From NCBI GenBank assembly GCA_015062345.1, contig SUUV01000003.1, positions 15,572 through 79,571 of the forward strand: a stretch of 64,000 nt of DNA, written 5' to 3'. Source of the DNA: Alphaproteobacteria bacterium (GTDB taxonomy: Bacteria > Pseudomonadota > Alphaproteobacteria > RF32 > CAG-239). The notes under the pieces were generated by a model. That model did not search any database. It was not told the origin of the DNA and saw only the letters and a program-made list of their open reading frames with translations. Position 1 is the stretch's first letter. Every line of letters begins with the position of its first letter. Positions 1,571-56,679 of the stretch are shown in pieces. A program made the position numbers and the translations under genes.

Positions 1571-2920
1571 TCAAAATCTTTTTTGTATACTAAACTCAAT
1601 TAACGATTTTTCATATTCTTTTTGCCATATATTTGAGCTCTTATCAGTGTAAGAATATGTTAAAGTCGGTGCAAAGCCCATAAACGAAATTTTGCGATTA
1701 GACAGTGATATAGAATATCTTTGAGTTGTATCGTGTTCTTTTACTTGTTCAAAATGATAGTCTTTAACCGTCCAGCGCTTGCCTTTATAATCGGTAAACA
1801 CAACCGATGGCTCGGCATATATATGAAAACCGTACGGCAATTCCGCACCAAAACCGAGAGCTAGATTTATTCTATTGTTTGTATATGTTTCATCTTTTGT
1901 TTTTTCATATTCATAACCCGTCTTAAATATGAAATATTTTGAAGAATCTAAAGCATAAAACAAACGCAATCTGGCGCTTTTTACATTGCCGTCCAAAATA
2001 TCCGAATAGTCATCATAATATGTCGGCGTATAGTTTAAGGTTAGGTTTGCGTTTAGCTTTTTTGTTACATCATAATTTGTTTCAAACATAAAACCGGTTG
2101 AATAGTTATAAGATTTATGGGCAAGGTATCTCTTAGATATTGTTGGTCCAAAGAAAAAATCTCCTTTGTTATGAATATATCTTGCGCCTATTGTATAGTA
2201 TAGGTATGTATCGTCATATTTTTTATCGTCATATTTTGAATTATAAACCATAAATTCGTTCTTTAAACGCCATTTATCGGTGAGCTTAAATTCATAATCC
2301 CCGCCGAAAGTGATGTTTAAGCCGACATCTTTTTTAGGTTCGTCTAAGGTATTGCAAACAATGCCAAATATTGTCATAACACATTGTTCGCCCGATGCCG
2401 TATTGTTTACATTGTTATCGGGAGCAATTCCCATATTAAACCACAAATTCCAATTTTTGTTTTTTCTGATATAATATAAAGCATATTTTATTCTGTGTTG
2501 CACCTCTTTTGGGGTGTCTTTGTGTGATAAGGCCAATCTGTAATGATATTCGGCTCGCATCCAGTCTTTTTGTTTTAGGTACAGTTCTGCCAATCTATAC
2601 CTGATATTTGCAATATCGGGTTGATAATCTAAGATAAAATGGTAAATATCTATCGCTTCTTGAGGTTTGTTTTCCAGTGTGGCAATTTGTGCTAAAAGAT
2701 ATAAACGCTCAATTTCAAGTTTTTTATCATTATACGGTTTAGCAAGCAAAGCCTTTCTTGCATCTTCAAATTTGCCCTGATTTATTAAATCGGTAGCAAA
2801 AGATAATAATTGTTTATGCGTCAAGGCAATTGCGGTTGGTTGTTCCTCAACCGCATTTAACGGCATAGCTTGGGCGGTTGTAACGCCCAAGCTAATTAAC
2901 ACAATCAGTCCATACAGCAT
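1571..2920 (-). CDS. Outer-membrane protein with N-terminal TPR repeats and a C-terminal beta-barrel, Slam/DUF560-like.
   Basis: Signal peptide MLYGLIVLISLGVTTAQA. TPR-like helices in residues ~30-170. C-terminal half is rich in alternating aromatic residues and ends in F, as beta-barrels do. It directly abuts the upstream lipoprotein gene. Confidence 0.5.
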   Translation of the reverse strand: MLYGLIVLISLGVTTAQAMPLNAVEEQPTAIALTHKQLLSFATDLINQGKFEDARKALLAKPYNDKKLEIERLYLLAQIATLENKPQEAIDIYHFILDYQPDIANIRYRLAELYLKQKDWMRAEYHYRLALSHKDTPKEVQHRIKYALYYIRKNKNWNLWFNMGIAPDNNVNNTASGEQCVMTIFGIVCNTLDEPKKDVGLNITFGGDYEFKLTDKWRLKNEFMVYNSKYDDKKYDDTYLYYTIGARYIHNKGDFFFGPTISKRYLAHKSYNYSTGFMFETNYDVTKKLNANLTLNYTPTYYDDYSDILDGNVKSARLRLFYALDSSKYFIFKTGYEYEKTKDETYTNNRINLALGFGAELPYGFHIYAEPSVVFTDYKGKRWTVKDYHFEQVKEHDTTQRYSISLSNRKISFMGFAPTLTYSYTDKSSNIWQKEYEKSLIEFSIQKRF

Positions 2921-4993: not shown

Positions 4994-5069
<76 letters not shown>

Positions 5070-5160: not shown

Positions 5161-5298
5161 CCTCATTTTTGATTTAAATCCACAAATAGACTCTTTTTAC
5201 TTGCAAAAAAAAAAAACGGTTTATGATGCGTCTTGAAAGGGCATTTTTGCCTTTTGAATGAAAATTAAGTTAAACTATTTTTGTAAAGGATATAAATT
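5161..5298 (+). promoter_or_regulatory. Conserved promoter-leader module (copy B1): TTTGATTTAAAT box, TTGCAA, A12 tract 5215..5226, TATGAT, leader hairpin, RBS.
   Basis: Near-identical to seven other copies in the window. Confidence 0.7.
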
Positions 5299-11134: not shown

Positions 11135-11215
11135 CTAACTCCATATATTATATTCTGTTCACATTCTAAACCGTTTTTTTTTTTTGCAATTTTAAAGAGT
11201 CTATTGTGGATATTT
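11135..11215 (-). promoter_or_regulatory. Promoter of pilin-like gene 1, with the same TTGCAA-A12-CGGTTTAGAAT core as the MRKYF promoters.
   Basis: Reverse complement reads agactcttt..ttgcaaaaaaaaaaaacggtttagaatg. Confidence 0.6.
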
Positions 11216-11290
11216 AATCATTTTTGAGGTGATAGTCAAATAAATTTATATTTATCATCGCTTAATAACTTTAGTAAGCAATTATTACCG

Positions 11291-11470
11291 AAGTCCGCCT
11301 CCTAACTGTCACTCCGGCACTTGATGCTGAAATCCGCCTCCTCACTGTCACTCCGGCACTTGATGCCGGAGTCCAGGTGGTAATATAGCTTTATTTATTC
11401 CTAGATACCGGTGTCTATTCCAAGCTAAAGCTTGGGCACCGATATGACCGTGATGAGAGAGACACCTCTA
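11291..11470. repeat. Conserved structured element A, copy 1. Its 5' ~40 bp are tandemly duplicated.
   Basis: Shared with 22619..22751 and 53737..53880. Contains nested inverted repeats. Confidence 0.7.
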
Positions 11471-11607
11471 CACCATTTTTGATTTAAATTCTTTATTAGA
11501 CTCTTTTTACTTGCAAAAAAAAAAAACGGTTTATGATGCAATGTGAAAGGTTAATTTTGCACCTTTCAAATGTACTTAAACTTAATTTTTGTAAAGGATT
11601 TAAAATT
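11471..11607 (+). promoter_or_regulatory. Promoter-leader module B2 (A12 tract).
   Basis: Same module as B1. Confidence 0.7.
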
Positions 11608-15693: not shown

Positions 15694-16296
15694 ATGATTT
15701 ACGGATATGTGCGTGTGAGCAGCGACAAACAAACAACTCAAAACCAAATTTTTGAAATAAATTCTTTTGCAAAAAGTAACAATCTTAAAATTGACAATTG
15801 GATAAACGAAACCATAAGCGGACTGTATGATGTAAAAAAAAGAAAACTCGGTAAGCTCTTAAAAAAAATGAAAAAAGGCGACATTATGATTAGCTCCGAG
15901 CTTTCAAGATTAGGCCGCAATTTATTGCAGGTTATGAGTATTTTATCATATTGTATGGAGCACGAAATTGCTGTTTGGACCATAAAAGATAATTATCGAT
16001 TAAGCATTGATATTCAGTCAAAAATTATGGCTTTTGCGTTCGGATTATCGGCAGAAATTGAACGCAATTTGATTTCTCAGCGAACAAAAGAAGCTTTGGC
16101 TCGCTTAAAAGCCGAAGGTAAAACTTTGGGAAGACCTAAAGGAACATTAAAAGCTCAATATGTTTTAGAGCAAAATAAAGAGCAAATTTTAAATGATATA
16201 AAATCTGATGTACCTTTTATTAAAATCGCCGACAAATTTAATGTTTGTGATAAAACCTTGCGAAGATTTTTAAAAAAAAATAATATTAGCTATTGA
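15694..16296 (+). CDS. Small serine recombinase (resolvase/invertase family).
   Basis: N-terminal YGYVRVSSDKQ catalytic motif. C-terminal HTH. 200 aa. Confidence 0.85.
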   Translation: MIYGYVRVSSDKQTTQNQIFEINSFAKSNNLKIDNWINETISGLYDVKKRKLGKLLKKMKKGDIMISSELSRLGRNLLQVMSILSYCMEHEIAVWTIKDNYRLSIDIQSKIMAFAFGLSAEIERNLISQRTKEALARLKAEGKTLGRPKGTLKAQYVLEQNKEQILNDIKSDVPFIKIADKFNVCDKTLRRFLKKNNISY

Positions 16297-16352
16297 AAAG
16301 CAAATTTTCAACCCTATCTAAAAGTTGTAATTTTTTAACTAAAGATAGGGAT

Positions 16353-17285
16353 ATGACGCAAAATATAAAAATAGCCGTACAATTTTTCGGGCACTTAAGG
16401 ACATTTGAAAAATGTGCCATAAGTATTAAAAAACACATTTTATCAAAATATGACTGTGATGTGTTTATGCATACTTGGTCAGATACTGAGCATTCAACAC
16501 AAACTTGGCACAATATGAAATCTAAGGTGCAAACCGTAAATCAAAAAATGCTTGAAAAAATTGAAAAACAATATCTGCCGAAGATGACCTTGGTTGAAAA
16601 GCAAATTTTGCCCGAAGATGATACCTTAATGGCTTGTATGCATAATAAAAAAGCAAAAATGATTTCGGCAAACGGTATGAAATTTATGCTAAAATCACAA
16701 ATTAAGGTTAATGAACTTCGAAAACAATATGCCAAAAAAAACGGTATAAACTATGACATTGTCTTAATGTTGCGTCCGGATATTTATTTATATTCCGATT
16801 TAGATATAAATAAAATTGTAAAAGAATGTAATGCGGTTATAGATTATCCGGCTCGATTTTGTGTCAGTAACGCCTTAAAAAAGGGAGGGACTTGCGCTTT
16901 TACGAGTGATATGTTAAGTGATGTATTTTATTTGGCAACACCTTCAAGTATGGATTTAATTGTTGATGCATTTAAAAACATAAAATTTGAAAAATTTACC
17001 GAAAAACTGTGGACTCCTGAAAATCTGATTACCAATATCTTATTTAAAAAAGGTATTGCCACATTTGCTTTGTTATATTTTTTTAATCGAGATTTCGAAA
17101 TTATCAGAGGTTCATATTGCGACAAAGAAAAACGAAAAAGATTTATAAGTTTTAAGCTCTCGCATAAAACTTTAAGATTAAACATATTTGGTTTTATGGC
17201 AAAAAGCTTTGTTTCGATGGACTTTCATATATTTAACTTGTTTAATATAGATTTTTCAATAGGAAAACCTCATGCAAAATGCTGA
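16353..17285 (+). CDS. Hypothetical protein, possibly polysaccharide-related.
   Basis: ORF. ATG at MTQNIK lies downstream of a hairpin at 16308..16350; the track start at 16293 is a TTG extension. Confidence 0.5.
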   Translation: MTQNIKIAVQFFGHLRTFEKCAISIKKHILSKYDCDVFMHTWSDTEHSTQTWHNMKSKVQTVNQKMLEKIEKQYLPKMTLVEKQILPEDDTLMACMHNKKAKMISANGMKFMLKSQIKVNELRKQYAKKNGINYDIVLMLRPDIYLYSDLDINKIVKECNAVIDYPARFCVSNALKKGGTCAFTSDMLSDVFYLATPSSMDLIVDAFKNIKFEKFTEKLWTPENLITNILFKKGIATFALLYFFNRDFEIIRGSYCDKEKRKRFISFKLSHKTLRLNIFGFMAKSFVSMDFHIFNLFNIDFSIGKPHAKC

Positions 17286-18129
17286 ATTTATAAAACCCTT
17301 AACCGGACATTCCGGTTGCGGTTTAAATTTATATAAAAAGGACGATAAACTTTTTTTAAGAAAAGATTCAGGCGATTGTTCATACAACCGGCGCTTAAAA
17401 AAACAATATATTAAGCAAAACAAATTTTTCCTAAACGGTATAAGAACTCCGAAAATTTATAATCACGGACATGAAAACGGCTTATTTTACTTTGATATGG
17501 AGTTTTTAAACGGTATAACCTTGGCAGAATATATGTCCAATATCAAAATTAAGGAAATAAACTCGCTTATAGGCTTATTGTTTAAATCTTTACCGGTTGA
17601 AAGTTCTAAAATTTTACCTGATACCGATGCTGTTTTTAAGAAAAAAATCAGGCAAATCAAAACCAAACTGCGCCCAAGTGACAGCCAAGCCTTAATTGCA
17701 GTTGATATGCTCGAAAATTTTGATTTTTCTATGGTTCCGTTTAGCTATTGTTGCGGTGATTTGACCTTAGAAAACATTATGCTTGATGATAACAAACAAA
17801 TTTATTTAATTGATTTTCTTGATTCTTTTTATAACTCTTGGATGATTGATGTGGCAAAACTTTTGCAAGACTTAGAGCTTCATTGGTCTTATAGAAATCA
17901 GGAAGTTGACTTTAATTTATCCATGCGTTTGGCAGTGGCAAAAGAAGCCTTGTTGGAAAATATTGCCGAATATGAAAATGCAAAAGAAAACATCTGCACC
18001 ATTTATCACATTTTACTGTTAAACATTTTGCGCATAATTCCTTATGCCAAAGACGATAAAACGCATTTATTTTTAAAAAATGCTTTAAATAAAATTATAC
18101 AAACCATCAAACAAACGGAGAAAAATTGA
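17272..18129 (+). CDS. Protein-kinase-like phosphotransferase (choline kinase / APH family).
   Basis: Brenner/catalytic-loop-like GDLTLENIML and IDFLDS motifs. Confidence 0.6.
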   Translation: MQNAEFIKPLTGHSGCGLNLYKKDDKLFLRKDSGDCSYNRRLKKQYIKQNKFFLNGIRTPKIYNHGHENGLFYFDMEFLNGITLAEYMSNIKIKEINSLIGLLFKSLPVESSKILPDTDAVFKKKIRQIKTKLRPSDSQALIAVDMLENFDFSMVPFSYCCGDLTLENIMLDDNKQIYLIDFLDSFYNSWMIDVAKLLQDLELHWSYRNQEVDFNLSMRLAVAKEALLENIAEYENAKENICTIYHILLLNILRIIPYAKDDKTHLFLKNALNKIIQTIKQTEKN

Positions 18130-18130
18130 T

Positions 18131-19186
18131 ATGTGTACTCTTATAATTCCCTGTGCCGGAAAATCGAGCCGTTTTCCGAATATGAAACCCAAATGGATGC
18201 TAACTCACCCTGACGGCAAACTTATGATTGAAAAATCTTTGGAAGGTATAAATTTTGATAATTTCAAACGCATCATTATCACCATTGTCAAACCGCATGA
18301 TGAAAAATATGATGCCAAACTTATTTTGGAACAAGTTTTTCGGCATAATAAAAAAATTGAAATTTGTGTTTTGGAAGATTTTACGCAAAGTGCAAGCCAG
18401 ACCATATATTTAACCATACAAAAAATGAACATTCAAGGCGCTTTTGTGATTAAAGATTCGGATAACAAGGTTTTGTTTGATATGCCTCAAAAAATAAAAA
18501 ATGCAATTGTCGGGTTTGATTTAGCCAAGCATCCGGACATTGCCAACATTCCGGCAAAAAGTTTTTTGATTGTAAATGAACAAAACATTATTCAGGACAT
18601 TATCGAAAAACAAGTTGTGTCAAAGTGCATTTGTCTTGGTGTTTATATGTTTGAAAGGGCGTTCGATTTTATACAAGCTTATGAAGAATTAAGCCAAAAA
18701 AATGTCAAAGGAGAAATGTTTGTCAGCCACATAATTTCTTATATGCTAACTTGTGGCAACACCATATTTACGGCCATTATGGCTAACTTTTTTGAAGATT
18801 GGGGCACATTATCCGAGTGGCACAAAGTTCAAAAAAAGCATCGCACATATTTTGTTGATGTTGATGGCGTCATACTTAAAAATTCGGGCAAATACGGCAT
18901 TGTAAATTGGAGCAACAATAAAACGGTTTTAGAAGAAAATATCAAAAGCTTACTTGAGTTGCAAGAAAACGGTGCTCAAATTGTGATTACCACATCAAGA
19001 ACGGAAGAATATAGGGAAGATTTGATAAATATATTGCATCAAAACAAAATTTTTCCGTATGCGATTTTAATGGGTCTAAATCATGCGGCAAGAGTTGTTA
19101 TAAACGATTTTGCTCCGACTAATCCGTATCCGTCGGGCATAGCTGTCAGTTTGCCGAGAAATACTAATATTAAAGATTATTTATAA
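18131..19186 (+). CDS. Fusion of a nucleotidyltransferase (MobA/LicC-like) and a HAD-like phosphatase domain.
   Basis: N-terminal LIIPCAGKSSRF. C-terminal FVDVDGVI (HAD motif I). Confidence 0.6.
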   Translation: MCTLIIPCAGKSSRFPNMKPKWMLTHPDGKLMIEKSLEGINFDNFKRIIITIVKPHDEKYDAKLILEQVFRHNKKIEICVLEDFTQSASQTIYLTIQKMNIQGAFVIKDSDNKVLFDMPQKIKNAIVGFDLAKHPDIANIPAKSFLIVNEQNIIQDIIEKQVVSKCICLGVYMFERAFDFIQAYEELSQKNVKGEMFVSHIISYMLTCGNTIFTAIMANFFEDWGTLSEWHKVQKKHRTYFVDVDGVILKNSGKYGIVNWSNNKTVLEENIKSLLELQENGAQIVITTSRTEEYREDLINILHQNKIFPYAILMGLNHAARVVINDFAPTNPYPSGIAVSLPRNTNIKDYL

Positions 19187-19197
19187 AGGAGAGAATT

Positions 19198-20205
19198 ATG
19201 AACATATTAATTACCGGAGGAGCCGGATTTATCGGTTCCGAGCTGGGAAAATTTTTAGTTGCGCAAGGCCACAATGTTAAAATTTTGGACAACTTGGAAT
19301 ATGGCTATAAAGACAATTTTGAAGATAACCAAACCTTAAAGAATAACTTCATATTTGCCGATATCAGAGATACCGATTTTGCAAAACACTTAAAAAACAT
19401 TGACATATTGTATCACTTTGCCGGTATATCGGCTTTGCCAGAGTGCGAATCAGAGCCTTACAAGGCCTTTGATGTTAATACCTCAGGTGTGGCAAATGTG
19501 TTAAATGCGTGCAGAAATTCTGATGTGAAAAAAATTATTTTTGCTTCAACATCTGCCGTGTATGAAAACAATTGTGCAACGGAACATCACAAAGAAACCG
19601 ACATTGTGTGTCCTAACCTTATTTATGCCACCTCAAAATATTGCGCCGAGCAAATTTGCAAATCGTATGCTCAAAATTATGATATGGACATCATCATTTG
19701 CCGATTTTTTAATGTATTCGGCCCACATCAAGACTTTAGGCGCAAATATCCGCCGTTTACAAGCTATATTATCAAAATGGCTTTAAGCAATGAAACACCT
19801 ACAATTTTTAATTGTGAAGATTGTAAACGAGATTATATCTACATTGATGATTTGTTGCAATATCTGTATCAAATGGCAACAAGCTCAAAAAAATATTCTG
19901 CCGAAATATTTAATTTGGCTACTTCAAATGCGTACAGCGCCATTGAAATTGCGCAAACGGTGTATGATATATTAAACAAAGAATTTGCCTTTAATGTTGG
20001 CGATGCCGAAAAGTTTTGGGATAAATATGACAATTTGTTTAACCAAAAATATAATTTAAGCCGGTTGAGGGTAAAACAAGAGGTTTTTAAGCATTGCTTG
20101 GGAAACGGGCAAAAAGTAGCAAAAGAATTTAATTATAGTCCTAAAACTAACTTAAAAGAAGGTTTGCGCAAAATTATTGAATATCAAAAAAATTATAAAG
20201 GGTAA
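19198..20205 (+). CDS. NAD-dependent sugar epimerase/dehydratase.
   Basis: ILITGGAGFIGSEL Rossmann motif and YxxxK. Confidence 0.8.
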   Translation: MNILITGGAGFIGSELGKFLVAQGHNVKILDNLEYGYKDNFEDNQTLKNNFIFADIRDTDFAKHLKNIDILYHFAGISALPECESEPYKAFDVNTSGVANVLNACRNSDVKKIIFASTSAVYENNCATEHHKETDIVCPNLIYATSKYCAEQICKSYAQNYDMDIIICRFFNVFGPHQDFRRKYPPFTSYIIKMALSNETPTIFNCEDCKRDYIYIDDLLQYLYQMATSSKKYSAEIFNLATSNAYSAIEIAQTVYDILNKEFAFNVGDAEKFWDKYDNLFNQKYNLSRLRVKQEVFKHCLGNGQKVAKEFNYSPKTNLKEGLRKIIEYQKNYKG

Positions 20206-20208
20206 GGC

Positions 20209-21304
20209 TATGTCAAAAATCAGTTCAAAAGATGTATCAGTTGTTGTTCAGGGTAAAAATGTGCATAAACATACAGCCAAATGCTTAAAAAGTTTGCGAG
20301 AACATTTTCCTTATGCCGAAATTATATTTTCAACTTATGATGATGAAGATGTGTTTGGCCTTGATTTTGATATCTTGGTACAATCTGCTGACCCGAATGC
20401 AACTTTATTAAGCGGTAAAATGTACAACAACATTAATCGCATATTGACCACTACCAGAGCCGGACTTGAAAAAGTCAGCCGAAAATATTGTTTGAAGATT
20501 CGCTCAGATTTGATGTTTGATAACGATAAAATTTTATCCGATATCGCTTCACAATTTCCGTTAAGAGATAAACAATACAGCATATTTAAGGAGCGAGTTT
20601 TATTTTATTGTTTATGGAGCCGAAAATTTGAATATATCGACCATAAATATTACATACAGACACCGTTTCACTTAAGCGATTGGCTTTGTTTCGGTTTAAG
20701 CGAAGATATAAAAAACTTTTTTAGCGATATTCCCTTAACCGATGAGCCTGAATATTCACACTATTTTAAAAACTCCGAAAACAGAGCACAATATATGTTT
20801 GAGCCTAATGTAACTTGGAAATTCCCGCCGGAACAATATTTTACAACCACCTTTTTCGGCCGTTTTTTTGAGCAAGCCAATATGAAATCGTTGCAAGATG
20901 TAACAGCAAAAAAAGTTGAGCTTTCAAGGAGAATTTTTGCTTCAAATGTGGTGGTTTGCGGATATAAAGAATGTGGAGCATATATTCAAAAAGATGATTA
21001 CAAATATGTATCAAAAAACATAAATTGGCTCAAAGGTGTTTGGCTTAGCGGTGTTTATCGTTATGCCGATTTTCTGTCCGATTATAAAAAATATTGCGAT
21101 GAAAATTTTGAAATTCCAAATATTTATTTATGGGCATTAAACCAGCAAATTGATAGTGATGCCGTTAAACTGAGTAAACATTATAAAACTTTTATGCAAC
21201 CGATAAGAGTGGTTCTAAAATGGTTAGAACAGTTTTTTGCTATTGTTTTTTATGCCGTAAAAATAGGTTTTGCTACAATAAAACTATATTTTGGCGGTAA
21301 ATAG
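20209..21304 (+). CDS. Hypothetical protein, WavE-like LPS biosynthesis family (tentative).
   Basis: ORF of 365 aa. Weak recollection of the WavE family only. Confidence 0.4.
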
Positions 21305-21860: not shown

Positions 21861-22003
21861 TTTTAAAATTCCTTTACAAAAATTAAGTTTAAGTACATTT
21901 GAAAGGTCAAAAAATCACCTTTCACATCGCATCATAAACCGTTTTTTTTTTTTGCAAGTAAAAAGAGTCGTTTAAAAGATTTAAATCAAAAATGAGGTGT
22001 TTT
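21861..22003 (-). promoter_or_regulatory. Promoter-leader module B3 (T12 on the plus strand).
   Basis: Reverse complement matches the B consensus. Confidence 0.7.
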
Positions 22004-22228
22004 TATGCTTGCAAAATTTTAGAAAATATTTAATATAAACATTGTCGCCAAACGGCGATGGTGTTCCAAAAACATCTTTACAGTAAAACTCCTTGTCAGG
22101 GGGAGTGGGGGATATAAGGCTTTATGCTCGAATAACCCTGACTGGACTGTAACAGTTTTTGGGCTCCCCGCTTTGATTTTTTCTCAAGGCGGTTTTTTGT
22201 TAACTTAAAAAAAACAGGAGCTAAAAAT

Positions 22229-22522
22229 ATGGAAAAAACTAAACCAACCGAAAATTTTGAAAAAGAATATTCACAAAATTTAAGTATCAGAAGAAATTAT
22301 CGCAAAAAATTAATCCAAAGTGTGGCAAGACAAATCTGCCGTATCAGTATTGAAGAAAAAATAAGCTTGGAAAAGCTGGCCGAAATGTCAAATGTGTCCG
22401 AGCTGACACTCAAACGATGGCTTATCGGCAAAGGCGAAATGCATCTGGACAGTTTATGTAAAATCTGTTTGAGGTTTAATAAAAGGCTTATTATCAGTAT
22501 TAAAGATATTCAGGATTTGTAA
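22229..22522 (+). CDS. XRE-family HTH transcriptional regulator.
   Basis: ISLEKLAEMSNVSELTLKRWLIGKG HTH. Confidence 0.6.
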   Translation: MEKTKPTENFEKEYSQNLSIRRNYRKKLIQSVARQICRISIEEKISLEKLAEMSNVSELTLKRWLIGKGEMHLDSLCKICLRFNKRLIISIKDIQDL

Positions 22523-22618
22523 CCCCTTTTTTTAAGAGTATAACGAGCAAAATCAAAAGCTTTCAGATTAATAATAATCGGAAAATATTTATTTTTTATC
22601 CTCATACTTTGCAACATA

Positions 22619-22751
22619 CCTCCTAACTGTCACTCCGGCACTTGATGCCGGAGTCCAGGTGGTAATATAGCTAAATTATTCCCTGGATACCGGTGTCTAT
22701 TCCGAACTAAAGTTCGGGCACCGGTATGAAGGTGATGAGAGAGACACTTCT
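22619..22751. repeat. Structured element A, copy 2.
   Basis: Carries compensatory changes in stem H3 relative to A1/A3. Confidence 0.7.
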
Positions 22752-22888
22752 ACCTCATTTTTGATTTAAATTCACATTTAGACTCTTTTTACTTGCAAAA
22801 AAAAAAAACGGTTTATGATGCGATGTGAAAGGTAAATTTTTGCCTTTCAAGTACATTTAAACTTGAATTTTTGTAAAGGATACAAATT
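22752..22888 (+). promoter_or_regulatory. Promoter-leader module B4 (A12).
   Basis: Consensus module. Confidence 0.7.
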
Positions 22889-23377
22889 ATGAGAAAATAT
22901 TTTCTTTTAAGCGCAGTTGCACTTTTAGCAAACATAACTGCCACATCAGTAAGTGCCGGAACCAATACATCAGCTAATGTAAATGTTGTAGCTTCAATTA
23001 ATCATGTGAATGAAATTAATTGTTCTGTATGGAATTTTGGCAATATATTTGTTAAATCTAATCAAGAAGATGGAAGTACCATTTTTTCAGTTATAGCAGA
23101 TTATGAACTTAATGCATCTTCCGTTGATGCTATTGTAAGCTCTTATGGATACGAACCTGCAAGATGTAATTTTGGAAATTTTAATCAAGAAAATTATACT
23201 TTTTACTTTCCTGAAAAAGTTACACTTACAAGTACAGATGGTGGAGAAATATATTTAACCGATTTGAGTTTTGACTCATTTGACATTATTGCAGGAACAT
23301 TGTCTTATGATTCTACGAATGCTTCATATGACGGAAATTATACTGGCTCATTTATTTTTACTTTGCTATCTGAATAA
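22889..23377 (+). CDS. MRKYF family paralog 4 (two-Cys subfamily).
   Basis: MRKYFLLSAVALLANITA...CSVWNFG...GNYTGSFIFTLLSE. Confidence 0.8.
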   Translation: MRKYFLLSAVALLANITATSVSAGTNTSANVNVVASINHVNEINCSVWNFGNIFVKSNQEDGSTIFSVIADYELNASSVDAIVSSYGYEPARCNFGNFNQENYTFYFPEKVTLTSTDGGEIYLTDLSFDSFDIIAGTLSYDSTNASYDGNYTGSFIFTLLSE

Positions 23378-32690: not shown

Positions 32691-32807
32691 CCACCTCATT
32701 TTTGATTTAAATATCTTTCATAACTCTTTTTACTTGCAAAAAAAACTGTTTACGATGCGTATTGAAAGGTAAATTTTTGCACCTTTTAAAATTAAGTTTA
32801 ACTATTT
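32691..32807 (+). promoter_or_regulatory. Degenerate promoter-leader module B5: A8 tract, -10 mutated to TACGAT, RBS lost.
   Basis: Aligns to the B consensus with decay. Confidence 0.6.
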
Positions 32808-33105
32808 ATGAGAAAATATTTTCTTTTATCAGCCATAGCCCTCTTGGCTGCAACAAATGTTAATGCAACCACAGACTATGCCGAAGTGACTGCTAGGGCT
32901 AAAATTGAAGTAGCAAATACTTTTGAATGTGATGATGTTGATTGGGGAACAATTGTTGTTAAAGCCGAAAATTAAGAACAGTGATAATGTATTATATGCT
33001 ACATTCAATGCCGACAGTGATAATTTGTGGCCTGTATTAAATATCCCTGCCAATGTTGAACCTGGTGAATACGAGGGCGTGACTACAGTAGTAGTAACTT
33101 ACTAA
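32808..33105 (+). pseudogene. MRKYF family pseudogene: internal deletion plus frameshift.
   Basis: MRKYFLLSAIALLAATNVNATTDYAEVTARAKIEVANTFEC... then a stop at ~32974. The conserved C-terminal ...GEYEGVTTVVVTY continues in another frame (32923..33105). Total length is ~100 codons against ~160 in intact copies. Confidence 0.75.
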
Positions 33106-33166
33106 ATCCATAAAACTCAACACCCCTTAGCCATACGGTTAAGGGGTGTATTTTTAGGTTGAGCAA

Positions 33167-53577: not shown

Positions 53578-53660
53578 CTTACTCCTTTAAAACATATTTT
53601 GAGCTCAGCATAAACCGTTTTTTTTTTTTGCAATTTATACGAGTCTTCTTTGTGGATAAT
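53578..53660 (-). promoter_or_regulatory. Promoter of pilin-like gene 2 (TTGCAA-A12-CGGTTTATGCT).
   Basis: Reverse complement matches the shared core. Confidence 0.6.
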
Positions 53661-53736
53661 TAGTCATCTTTGAGGTAATAGCCAAACAAATTTATATTTA
53701 TCACCTCTTAATAACTTTAGTAAGCAATTATTACCG

Positions 53737-53880
53737 AAGTCCGCCTCCTAACTGTCACTCCGGCACTTGATGCCGGAGTCCAGGTTAAATTATATAGCTA
53801 AATTATTCCCTGGATACCGGTGTCTATTCCAAGCTAAAGCTTGGGCACCGGTATGACCGTGATGGGAGACAACACCGCTA
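53737..53880. repeat. Structured element A, copy 3.
   Basis: Hairpins H1/H2/H3 intact. Confidence 0.7.
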
Positions 53881-54016
53881 CCTCAAATTTGATTTAAATT
53901 CACAATTAGACTCTTTTTACTTGCAAAAAAAAAAACGGTTTATGATGTGATGTGAAAGGCGATTTTTAGCTTTTCAAGTACATTTAAACTTAATTTTTAT
54001 AGAAAGGATTAAAATT
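53881..54016 (+). promoter_or_regulatory. Promoter-leader module B6 (A11).
   Basis: Consensus module. The tract is one A shorter than in other copies. Confidence 0.7.
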
Positions 54017-55329: not shown

Positions 55330-55470
55330 TTTCTTACCTCATTTTTGATTTAAACACTTCAAAAGACTCTTTTTACTTGCAAAAAAAAAGATTTAAAATG
55401 CGACATGAGAGACTAATCTTTAGCCTTTCATATGCACTTAAACTTAATTTTTGTAAAGGTCCTATAGTAT
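55330..55470 (+). promoter_or_regulatory. Orphan, decayed promoter-leader module B7. No downstream MRKYF gene.
   Basis: cctcatttttgatttaaa...agactctttttacttgcaaaaaaaaa, then a degenerate -10/leader. It abuts the 3' end of rnhB. Confidence 0.6.
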
Positions 55471-56540: not shown

Positions 56541-56679
56541 TACCTCAAATTTGATTTAAATTCACAATTAGACTCTTTTTACTTGCAAAAAAAAAAAACG
56601 GTTTATGATGTGATGTGAAAGGTGAGTTTTGCACCTTTCAAGTACATTTAGACTTAATTTTTATAAAGGAATTAAAAAA
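56541..56679 (+). promoter_or_regulatory. Promoter-leader module B8 (A12).
   Basis: Consensus module. Confidence 0.7.

Follow-up and report, generated by a model that had tools for sequence, protein, structure and literature searches.

INTRODUCTION

REP/BIME sequences are dispersed extragenic repeats of high copy number, with more than 100 copies per genome (Nunvar et al. 2010, PMC2817692); that study and Bertels & Rainey 2011 (PMC3116915) are our references for REP/BIME and REPIN sequences. The repeat described here, Element A, was analysed in a 64,000-nucleotide stretch of alphaproteobacterial DNA, the whole of which is called the window below. Element A and REP/BIME sequences are alike in being short, GC-rich extragenic palindromes that fold as hairpins, in forming mosaics of units in tandem and in alternating orientation (for Element A in copy A1 and in contigs L011, L013, L025 and L026), and in having stems that are maintained by paired changes and copies at varied stages of decay. 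Palindromic units of the REP type (20–40 nt) are present in Element A, namely hairpin H1 of 23 nt with a 9-bp stem and hairpin H3 of 41 nt. Element A differs in that a handful of copies was seen, beside one gene family, in that its unit exceeds theirs in length and is a composite of three hairpins, perhaps with a closing helix, and in that it starts with the lead AACTGTCAC and has no GTAG/GTGG head. It lies upstream of promoters, whereas REPs lie in 3' regions. No RAYT or Y1 transposase was found among the scanned ORFs of the window.

Correia/NEMIS elements of Neisseria and other MITEs share with Element A a length of ~100–150 bp, an intergenic position that is often beside variable surface-protein genes, and the formation of long hairpins when transcribed. 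Correia elements, present in hundreds of copies, end in inverted repeats of 26 bp and duplicate a TA target; in Element A neither terminal repeats nor a target duplication could be made out convincingly. The Rickettsia palindromic elements (RPE), compared here by description, are likewise alphaproteobacterial palindromic repeats of ~100–150 bp; they are specific to Rickettsia and often lie in frame within genes, whereas Element A is strictly intergenic. RIME and Sm-repeats of rhizobia are intergenic alphaproteobacterial mosaics of two large palindromes that are dispersed genome-wide. By description, they and Element A are both intergenic mosaics, but RIMEs are not tied to one gene family.

We give about an even chance to the reading that Element A is a structured, REP/BIME-like repeat of no proven function, present in several copies, confined to one lineage and tied to variable DUF4402 loci. 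An earlier reading of the window from its letters alone (the sequence-only reading) had listed a cis-regulatory RNA, an sRNA gene or a REP/RPE-like mobile palindromic element that carries the promoter along. The palindromic repeat came closest, and its promoter-carrying part fell away because most promoter modules stand without Element A. The REP/BIME comparison is one of appearance and behaviour and is not a claim of membership, since neither a GTAG head nor a RAYT was found and the 64 kb of the window plus ~15 kb of other contigs do not settle copy number and dispersal.

RESULTS AND DISCUSSION

A three-hairpin repeat occurs three times in the window

The three copies that the sequence-only reading had claimed were recovered, all on the + strand (A1, A2 and A3; Table 1). 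A 29-mer spanning H1 had three exact matches in the window against none expected from shuffles, and a covariance model built from eight full copies of Element A gave exactly three matches. Element A is GC-rich (~47% GC, compared with 25–30% in the surrounding intergenic DNA), measures ~135 bases and comprises three hairpins in the 5' to 3' order lead-H1-H2-H3-tail, which is common to all three copies. The lead is (A/G)CCTCCTAACTGTC, H1 is ACTCCGGCA-CTTGA-TGCCGGAGT and H2 is (T)CCAGG-N22-CCTGG(A) with an AT-rich inner part. H3 reads ATACCGGTG(T)-CTATT-CCAAGC-TAAA-GCTTGG-(G)CACCGGTAT and is two-tiered (ATACCGGTGT / CTATT / CCAAGC-TAAA-GCTTGG / GCACCGGTAT), and the tail, GACCGTGATGAGAGAGACACCTCTAC, varies between copies. 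Its hairpin units can be separated into lead+H1 (39 nt) and H2-H3, the latter containing the two-tier H3. The sequence of A2 is identical in metagenome contigs L004 and L005. The tandem duplication that had been noticed in A1 was confirmed as a 39-nt repeat (11278-11316 and 11317-11355, 82% identical), and an intact version with two lead+H1 units is present in L011.

Table 1. Element A copies, their parts and 5' flanks, and promoter/5'UTR modules in the window
Feature	Position	Strand	Basis or remark
Type I 5' flank of A1 (CTTAATAACTTTAGTAAGCAATTATTACCGAAGTCCG)	11261-11297	+	100% identical to 53707-53743, 97% to L013 1115-1151
Copy A1, whole	~11297-11472	+	Sequence reading
A1 extra lead+H1 unit, decayed; 3' arm TGCTGAAAT	11297-11335	+	39-nt tandem duplication
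A1 main unit	11336-11472	+	Covariance model, 129.0 bits (match 11336-11450)
A1 H1	11350-11372	+	
A1 H2	~11373-11404	+	3' arm CCTAGA, one C.A mismatch
A1 H3	11405-11445	+	Outer 3' arm CACCGATAT, one C.A mismatch
A1 tail	to 11472	+	
Type II 5' flank of A2 (AAAATATTTATTTTTTATCCTCATACTTTGCAAC)	22582-22615	+	blastn-short and sequence reading
Copy A2	22618-22754	+	Sequence reading; covariance model, 141.7 bits (match 22618-22732)
A2 lead (ACCTCCTAACTGTC)	22618-22631	+	
A2 H1	22632-22654	+	
A2 H2	22655-22686	+	
A2 H3	22687-22727	+	Inner stem CCGAAC/GTTCGG
A2 tail	22728-22754	+	
Promoter/5'UTR module 3' of A2, outside Element A (ACCTCATTTTTGATTTAAAT..TTGC-A12-CGGTTTATGATG..5'UTR hairpin..SD..ATG)	22750-22891	+	DUF4402 paralog 22889-23377
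Type I 5' flank of A3	53707-53743	+	
Copy A3	53743-53882	+	Sequence reading; covariance model, 136.1 bits (match 53743-53859)
A3 H1	53757-53779	+	
A3 H2 (TTAAATTATAT variant)	53780-53813	+	
A3 H3	53814-53854	+	AAGC/GCTT inner stem
A3 tail (GTGATGGGAGACAACACCGCTAC)	53855-53882	+	
Further modules	5159, 11468, 32691, 53878, 55335, 56541	+	nhmmer
Further modules	11231-11157, 21999-21862, 53677-53603	-	nhmmer

Stems change in pairs while the loops stay

Folded as RNA, A2 reached -59.8 kcal/mol on the + strand (z = -6.0 against shuffles) and -60.5 kcal/mol on the - strand (z = -5.2), and its fold with DNA parameters had a z of -6.4. A1 and A3 were similar to A2, and the z values of the Element A copies lay between -4 and -6.4 on either strand, whether RNA or DNA parameters were used; paired cells amounted to 95% across the copies. 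Conservation across copies was 1.00 for H1, 0.96 for H3, 0.99 for the core promoter, 0.75 for the tail and 0.64–0.82 for the 5'UTR; H1 and H3 thus equal the core promoter in conservation, and the tail and 5'UTR do not.

The compensatory substitutions that had been reported for H3 of A2 proved correct: the inner stem is CCGAAC/GTTCGG in A2 compared with CCAAGC/GCTTGG and stays perfect, an A-U pair having been replaced by G-C and a G-C pair by A-U at two paired positions. Judged by their placement, these changes are genuine compensation and cannot reasonably be due to chance, because four substitutions fall on two mutually paired positions and give complementary bases. The inner H3 occurs in three fully paired versions round one TAAA loop (CCAAGC/GCTTGG, CCGAAC/GTTCGG and CCCCCAG/CTGGGGG). 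The last belongs to L026, which keeps the lead-H1-H2-H3 order and both loops (E ~1e-3, the unit being syntenic with other Element A parts) and in which H3 is re-coded throughout, with the outer stem CTAATAGA/TCTATAG and the inner part CCCCCAG-TAAA-CTGGGGG. An outer H3 pair of L025 has changed from A-U to U-A (ATT..AAT). L025 and L026 also carry an H1 variant, ATGG-CTTGA-CCAT as against the canonical GGCA-CTTGA-TGCC, in which all four loop-proximal pairs are altered on both arms and the loop is unchanged. Since the stems change in pairs while the CTTGA and TAAA loops stay, the property that is maintained is, on the evidence of these alignments, the formation of single-strand hairpins with these specific loops. 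Some C-G to U-A double changes (e.g. in L025_u1) are also expected from GC-to-AT pressure on both arms; for the inner H3 changes of A2 and for the H1 variant this pressure is no explanation. An alternative, selection-free source of 'compensation' would be hairpin-templated (quasi-palindrome) correction at replication, a mechanism that itself depends on hairpins forming in vivo.

The sequence-only reading had named additional copies with non-compensatory H3 changes as evidence that would count against its claim. That evidence was found in part: such changes are present in A1, L032, L013b, L025 and L002. Mismatches occur in H2 and outer H3 of both A1 and L032; those of A1 (CCTAGA in H2 and CACCGATAT in the outer H3 stem) had gone unmentioned. 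The outer H3 of L013b has a C.U mismatch, H1 of L013a a C.A mismatch and L025 a broken inner H3 stem, and an internal deletion in L002 has removed H2 together with the 5' arm of H3. As several copies have uncompensated H3 changes, some copies of Element A are, by this comparison, decaying.

Element A stands upstream of some DUF4402 promoter modules

Directly 3' of each Element A lies a promoter/5'UTR module of ~140 nt with the structure ACCTCATTTTTGATTTAAAT ... GACTCTTTTTACTTGC-A(n)-CGGTTTATGATG, 5'UTR hairpin, SD, ATGAGAAAATATTTTCTT. The modules precede DUF4402 paralogs (Pfam), which form a large family of fast-evolving secreted proteins; the best non-self homolog of the gene behind A2 is 37% identical, and no papers on DUF4402 were found in a literature search. 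The window holds at least 10 modules, on both strands, and Element A stands before only three of them. Most modules of related species are also without it (L015, L017 with three modules, L019 with three modules, L021 and L023). Because most modules have no Element A, it is not part of the promoter and does not, as had been suggested, carry the promoter along. The element was also said to end immediately before the TTTGATTTAAAT box, but ~12 nt were found between this box and GAGAGACAC. Element A lies 0–70 nt upstream of the modules and points in the same direction as the downstream gene in 9 of 10 non-divergent contexts.

In these positions Element A might be a double-stranded site, with its CCGG-core palindromes acting as operators or activating sites for a dimeric regulator of some DUF4402 promoters. 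H1 is 100% identical in at least 10 copies across related genomes and has a 9-5-9 palindrome geometry, the element lies ~85–150 bp upstream of the -35 hexamer in a mostly fixed orientation to the downstream gene, and a small XRE-type HTH protein that could be the regulator is encoded just upstream of A2 (22229-22522, 97 aa) and also beside the L031 ortholog of A2. We nevertheless consider this clearly unlikely. The symmetric changes of inner H3 bring no gain for dimer binding, yet the hairpin is kept; the outer H3 arms are 23 nt apart; and most modules work without Element A. For inner H3 and H1 in particular, the palindromic protein site that the sequence-only reading had allowed for is unlikely, since different stems with the same loops coexist in one lineage: a single MAG lineage holds canonical (L002, L003) and re-coded (L025, L026) versions of H1/H3. 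A sigma-54 promoter with Element A as its enhancer site was rejected on direct reading of the module, which has no GG at -24 before TTGCA.

An A-tract lies between TTGC and CGGTTTATGATG in every DUF4402 module. It is mostly A12, with A8–A11 and A14 also occurring, and is found at 5201-5216, 11511-11526, 22793-22808, 53921-53935 and 56583-56598 on the + strand and at 11189, 21957 and 53633 on the - strand. The same locus has A14 in L029 (452) and A12 in L031 (1008), two samples; A14 gives TTGCAA-N17-TATGAT between the putative -35 and -10, and A12 gives N15. The modules are strong candidates for slipped-strand phase-variable promoters of a multi-gene surface-protein family. The 5'UTR hairpin, TGAAAGG(Y)-loop-(R)CCTTTCA, lies 3' of the putative -10 (22826-22849, 11544-11566, 56616-56640 and other modules) and displays Y/R covariation (GGT..ACC, GGC..GCT and GGTG..CACC). 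Two modules are degenerate: that at 32691-33106 has an A8 tract and a DUF4402 ORF with a stop near 32973, and that at 55335-55459, with an A9 tract, is not followed by an ORF. The two have the look of dead cassettes.

Signs for and against a transcribed RNA

A transcribed structured RNA, either an sRNA or a long leader or upstream transcript with a four-way junction that regulates or stabilises neighbouring transcripts, is a possible but rather unlikely identity for Element A. It would agree with the GC-rich island in AT-rich intergenic DNA, the strong folds, the compensatory changes and the conserved loops. The four-way junction would be formed by a closing helix (GTC/GAC plus AC/GT) that pairs the lead with TATGACCGT after H3; this helix is present in the minimum-energy folds of A1, A3 and L013a, is only 5–6 bp long and has only wobble variation. 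A sigma-70-like TTGAGG-17-TATATT is found in the type I flank of A1, with the same in A3 and L013a, but no promoter is common to both flank types. In A2 a weak hairpin can arise from the tail and ACCTCATTTTT, with a T-run behind it, but A3 has an interrupted T-run (CAAATTTG) and the scan detected no terminator. Truncated, duplicated and inverted units are moreover unusual for an RNA gene.

Wobble pairs gave contradictory evidence between the strands, and a strand call made from them was rejected. Read on the + strand, most single uncompensated changes give C.A, equivalent to G.U on the - strand, whereas inner H2, the closing-helix variants (L013b TGAT, L002 GTTA) and the end of outer H3 need + strand G.U pairs, and such G.U-only pairs would speak for an RNA. 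For L026 the opposite strand gave the better fold (-35.5 vs -28.1 kcal/mol).

Element A had no Rfam match, even at an E-value of 10. The Rfam scan that the sequence-only reading had proposed returned only a tRNA-Thr for the window at the gathering threshold (Rfam 15), and for 21900-22900 the best E was 0.95. Scans of the window found no Rfam family, own promoter or terminator for Element A, which leaves the sRNA and cis-regulatory RNA options without support, and a 5' leader does not fit an element that lies upstream of the promoter. Three further candidates were discarded: an intrinsic terminator made from the tail and ACCTCATTTTT (weak, missed by the scan, T-run broken in A3), a tRNA-like or att remnant (the tRNA-Thr at 4994-5069 was the sole ARAGORN prediction, and the hairpins are of the wrong dimensions) and a minus-strand small ORF behind AGGAGG of the lead, which is not conserved between flank types.

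Copies exchange segments with one another

At least three more copies of Element A lie on other contigs of the same genome, two in L013 and one in L011; these contigs were placed in the genome by proteins with the MAG locus-tag prefix E7016_. There are thus three copies in the 64-kb window and three in the ~15 kb that other contigs of this MAG provide, each of them beside DUF4402 modules. L013 has two whole copies in tandem between divergent modules, copy a with the GAAC/GTTC allele as in A2 and copy b with AAGC/GCTT. Element A was also found in the related MAGs or contigs L002, L003, L025, L026, L031, L032 and L035, with full copies in L003, L031 and L032, a partial copy in L035 and strongly diverged ones in L025 and L026; related copies came from the roe-deer colon MAG RGIG4267 and other gut metagenomes. 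A scan of a genome contig collection with an H1 21-mer gave two true loci and one chance match. Metagenome contig scans with the H1 21-mer and a module 23-mer gave no matches in collections that apparently lack the JGI/ENA samples containing the organism. Element A was not found in a viral collection scan or in plasmids or phages (distant blastn), and the 52 kb covered from related species (L015, L017 and L019) contained none.

Two types of 5' flank adjoin Element A. Type II was seen with Element A in A2, L003, L011, L013b, L031, L032 and L035, never without it, and is probably an extension of the repeat. Type I joins Element A to a divergent minus-strand promoter module, is reversed in L025 and L026, and was likewise never seen without Element A; its end, CCGAAGTCC, looks like a decayed H1 3' arm (CCGGAGTCC). 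Flank type combines with H2 allele, and flank type with H3 allele, in all four ways each, which argues that copies exchange segments. Tandem lead+H1 units of 39 nt are present in A1, L011 and L025; in L026 an inverted unit faces a direct unit, and L025 has truncated units. L025 and L026 share the downstream gene, the module, the reversed flank I and the H1 variant, and upstream of this shared part they hold different Element A units in opposite orientations.

The orthologous A2 locus of L031 is 94–98% identical to the window through the HTH gene up to flank II. From the lead onward the identity is 68% in the tail and 80% in the module, and the downstream gene is unrelated. By this comparison the 5' edge of Element A is a strain-to-strain recombination junction. 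The HTH protein encoded in L035 is identical to that upstream of A2, yet L035 carries the AAGC allele and other differences; the GAAC allele is therefore a mobile allele and not a change that arose in situ at A2. Contigs from short reads often break within Element A: L006–L009 start in H1/H2, and L011 and L035 end inside it.

Element A could also be a miniature transposable element (a MITE, or a REPIN dependent on IS200/RAYT) with insertions upstream of the modules, which we hold to be highly improbable. The 5' end matches the reverse complement of the 3' end at only 8 of 17 positions, so there are no convincing terminal inverted repeats, and even this match is not kept in the tails of A3, L003 and L031. 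A short direct repeat surrounds A2 (caTACCTCct ... tcTACCTCat) and empty modules begin with ACCTCA, but the repeat is only 4–6 nt and is imperfect at other copies. Units do occur in both orientations; however, all copies found lie at DUF4402 loci, and the orthologous loci compared yielded no empty counterpart to a filled site. An IS200-family Y1 transposase is encoded in a related contig (L034), but its end hairpins bear no relation to Element A, and its protein reaches 28.6 bits against a RAYT cut-off of 80. The IS200 in L034 was rejected as the mobilising enzyme on account of these unrelated end hairpins.

A possible REP/BIME-like repeat at the borders of variable loci

Under the REP/BIME-like reading, the property that matters would be the folding of one strand, as ssDNA in replication or recombination or as RNA on read-through, with no recognition of a double-stranded palindrome. 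Element A would be spread and homogenised by recombination and gene conversion together with the DUF4402 cassettes, and may supply homology and hairpin-prone DNA that promotes their rearrangement. Any influence on the neighbouring promoters, for example by shielding them from read-through or by taking up supercoils between divergent ones, would be secondary and is hypothetical. Several observations sit less well with a REP-like repeat. The copy number is low, with every copy at DUF4402 loci as against more than 100 dispersed copies for classical REPs, and no RAYT or other dedicated enzyme was found among the scanned window ORFs. The 9 of 10 orientation bias fits co-duplication or a role in cis equally well, and the near-identity of H1/H3 across species could mean sequence-specific recognition beyond folding.

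Taken alone, Element A would add a further family to the palindromic repeats that are specific to one lineage, and the evidence that its hairpin formation is preserved is clean, though small in scale. It marks variable borders of the large secreted DUF4402 family, could be a useful marker of recombination junctions, and explains the assembly breaks there. That it is instead an undescribed four-way-junction module with CTTGA and TAAA loops, bound by a hairpin-specific protein and driving or directing the exchange or inversion of DUF4402 cassettes, seems to us quite improbable; if this is true, uncultured gut Alphaproteobacteria would have an antigenic-variation system in which Element A acts in cis, possibly together with the Mpi-family invertase described below.

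Neighbouring genes and other structures

A 200-aa serine recombinase is encoded at 15694-16296 (+) and scores 297.5 bits against an equivalog cut-off of 272 for 'master DNA invertase Mpi family'. Mpi-family invertases are known from Bacteroides, yet this one is encoded by an alphaproteobacterium. Downstream of it, 16293-21304 holds LPS/polysaccharide genes (kinase, HAD hydrolase, epimerase, WavE). The site consensus of Bacteroides Mpi, ARACGTWCGT, is absent from the window. The divergent module pair round A1 forms a 59-nt inverted repeat of 80% identity (11162-11220 vs 11480-11538), and other divergent pairs are 53594-53677 vs 53878-53950 and, in L013, 945-1085 vs 1465-1602. These pairs flank a segment of 260–450 bp with flank I and Element A. 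Such an architecture with an invertase nearby could in principle allow inversion of the segment; round single modules no consistent flanking inverted repeats were found. Together, the position of Element A at the variable borders of the DUF4402 family, the A-tract promoters, the Mpi-family invertase and the polysaccharide cluster suggest a multi-gene surface-variation system in an uncultured ruminant-gut alphaproteobacterium, and we rate the A-tract promoters and the nearby invertase as more interesting than Element A.

Between the minus-strand module (21862-21999) and the HTH gene lies a GC-rich (46–47%), structured stretch at 22040-22200 (+) that ends in a good intrinsic terminator at 22168-22192 followed by TTTTTTG and no + strand ORF before it; the segment 22000-22228 is 87% identical in L031. 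This might be the remnant of a gene, or an sRNA. In L011 and L034, DUF4402 genes are followed by a terminator resembling this one. Directly 3' of the DUF4402 gene of L034 is an IS200/IS605 Y1 transposase (720-1175, -; 140.9 bits), whose end hairpin CCCCGCG-loop-CGCGGGG recurs in L021, where no transposase was called; this hairpin may be a separate small repeat. A homolog of the surface lipoprotein assembly modifier (Slam) with TPR repeats is encoded at 1571-2920 (-), in keeping with the other exported and surface proteins of the region.
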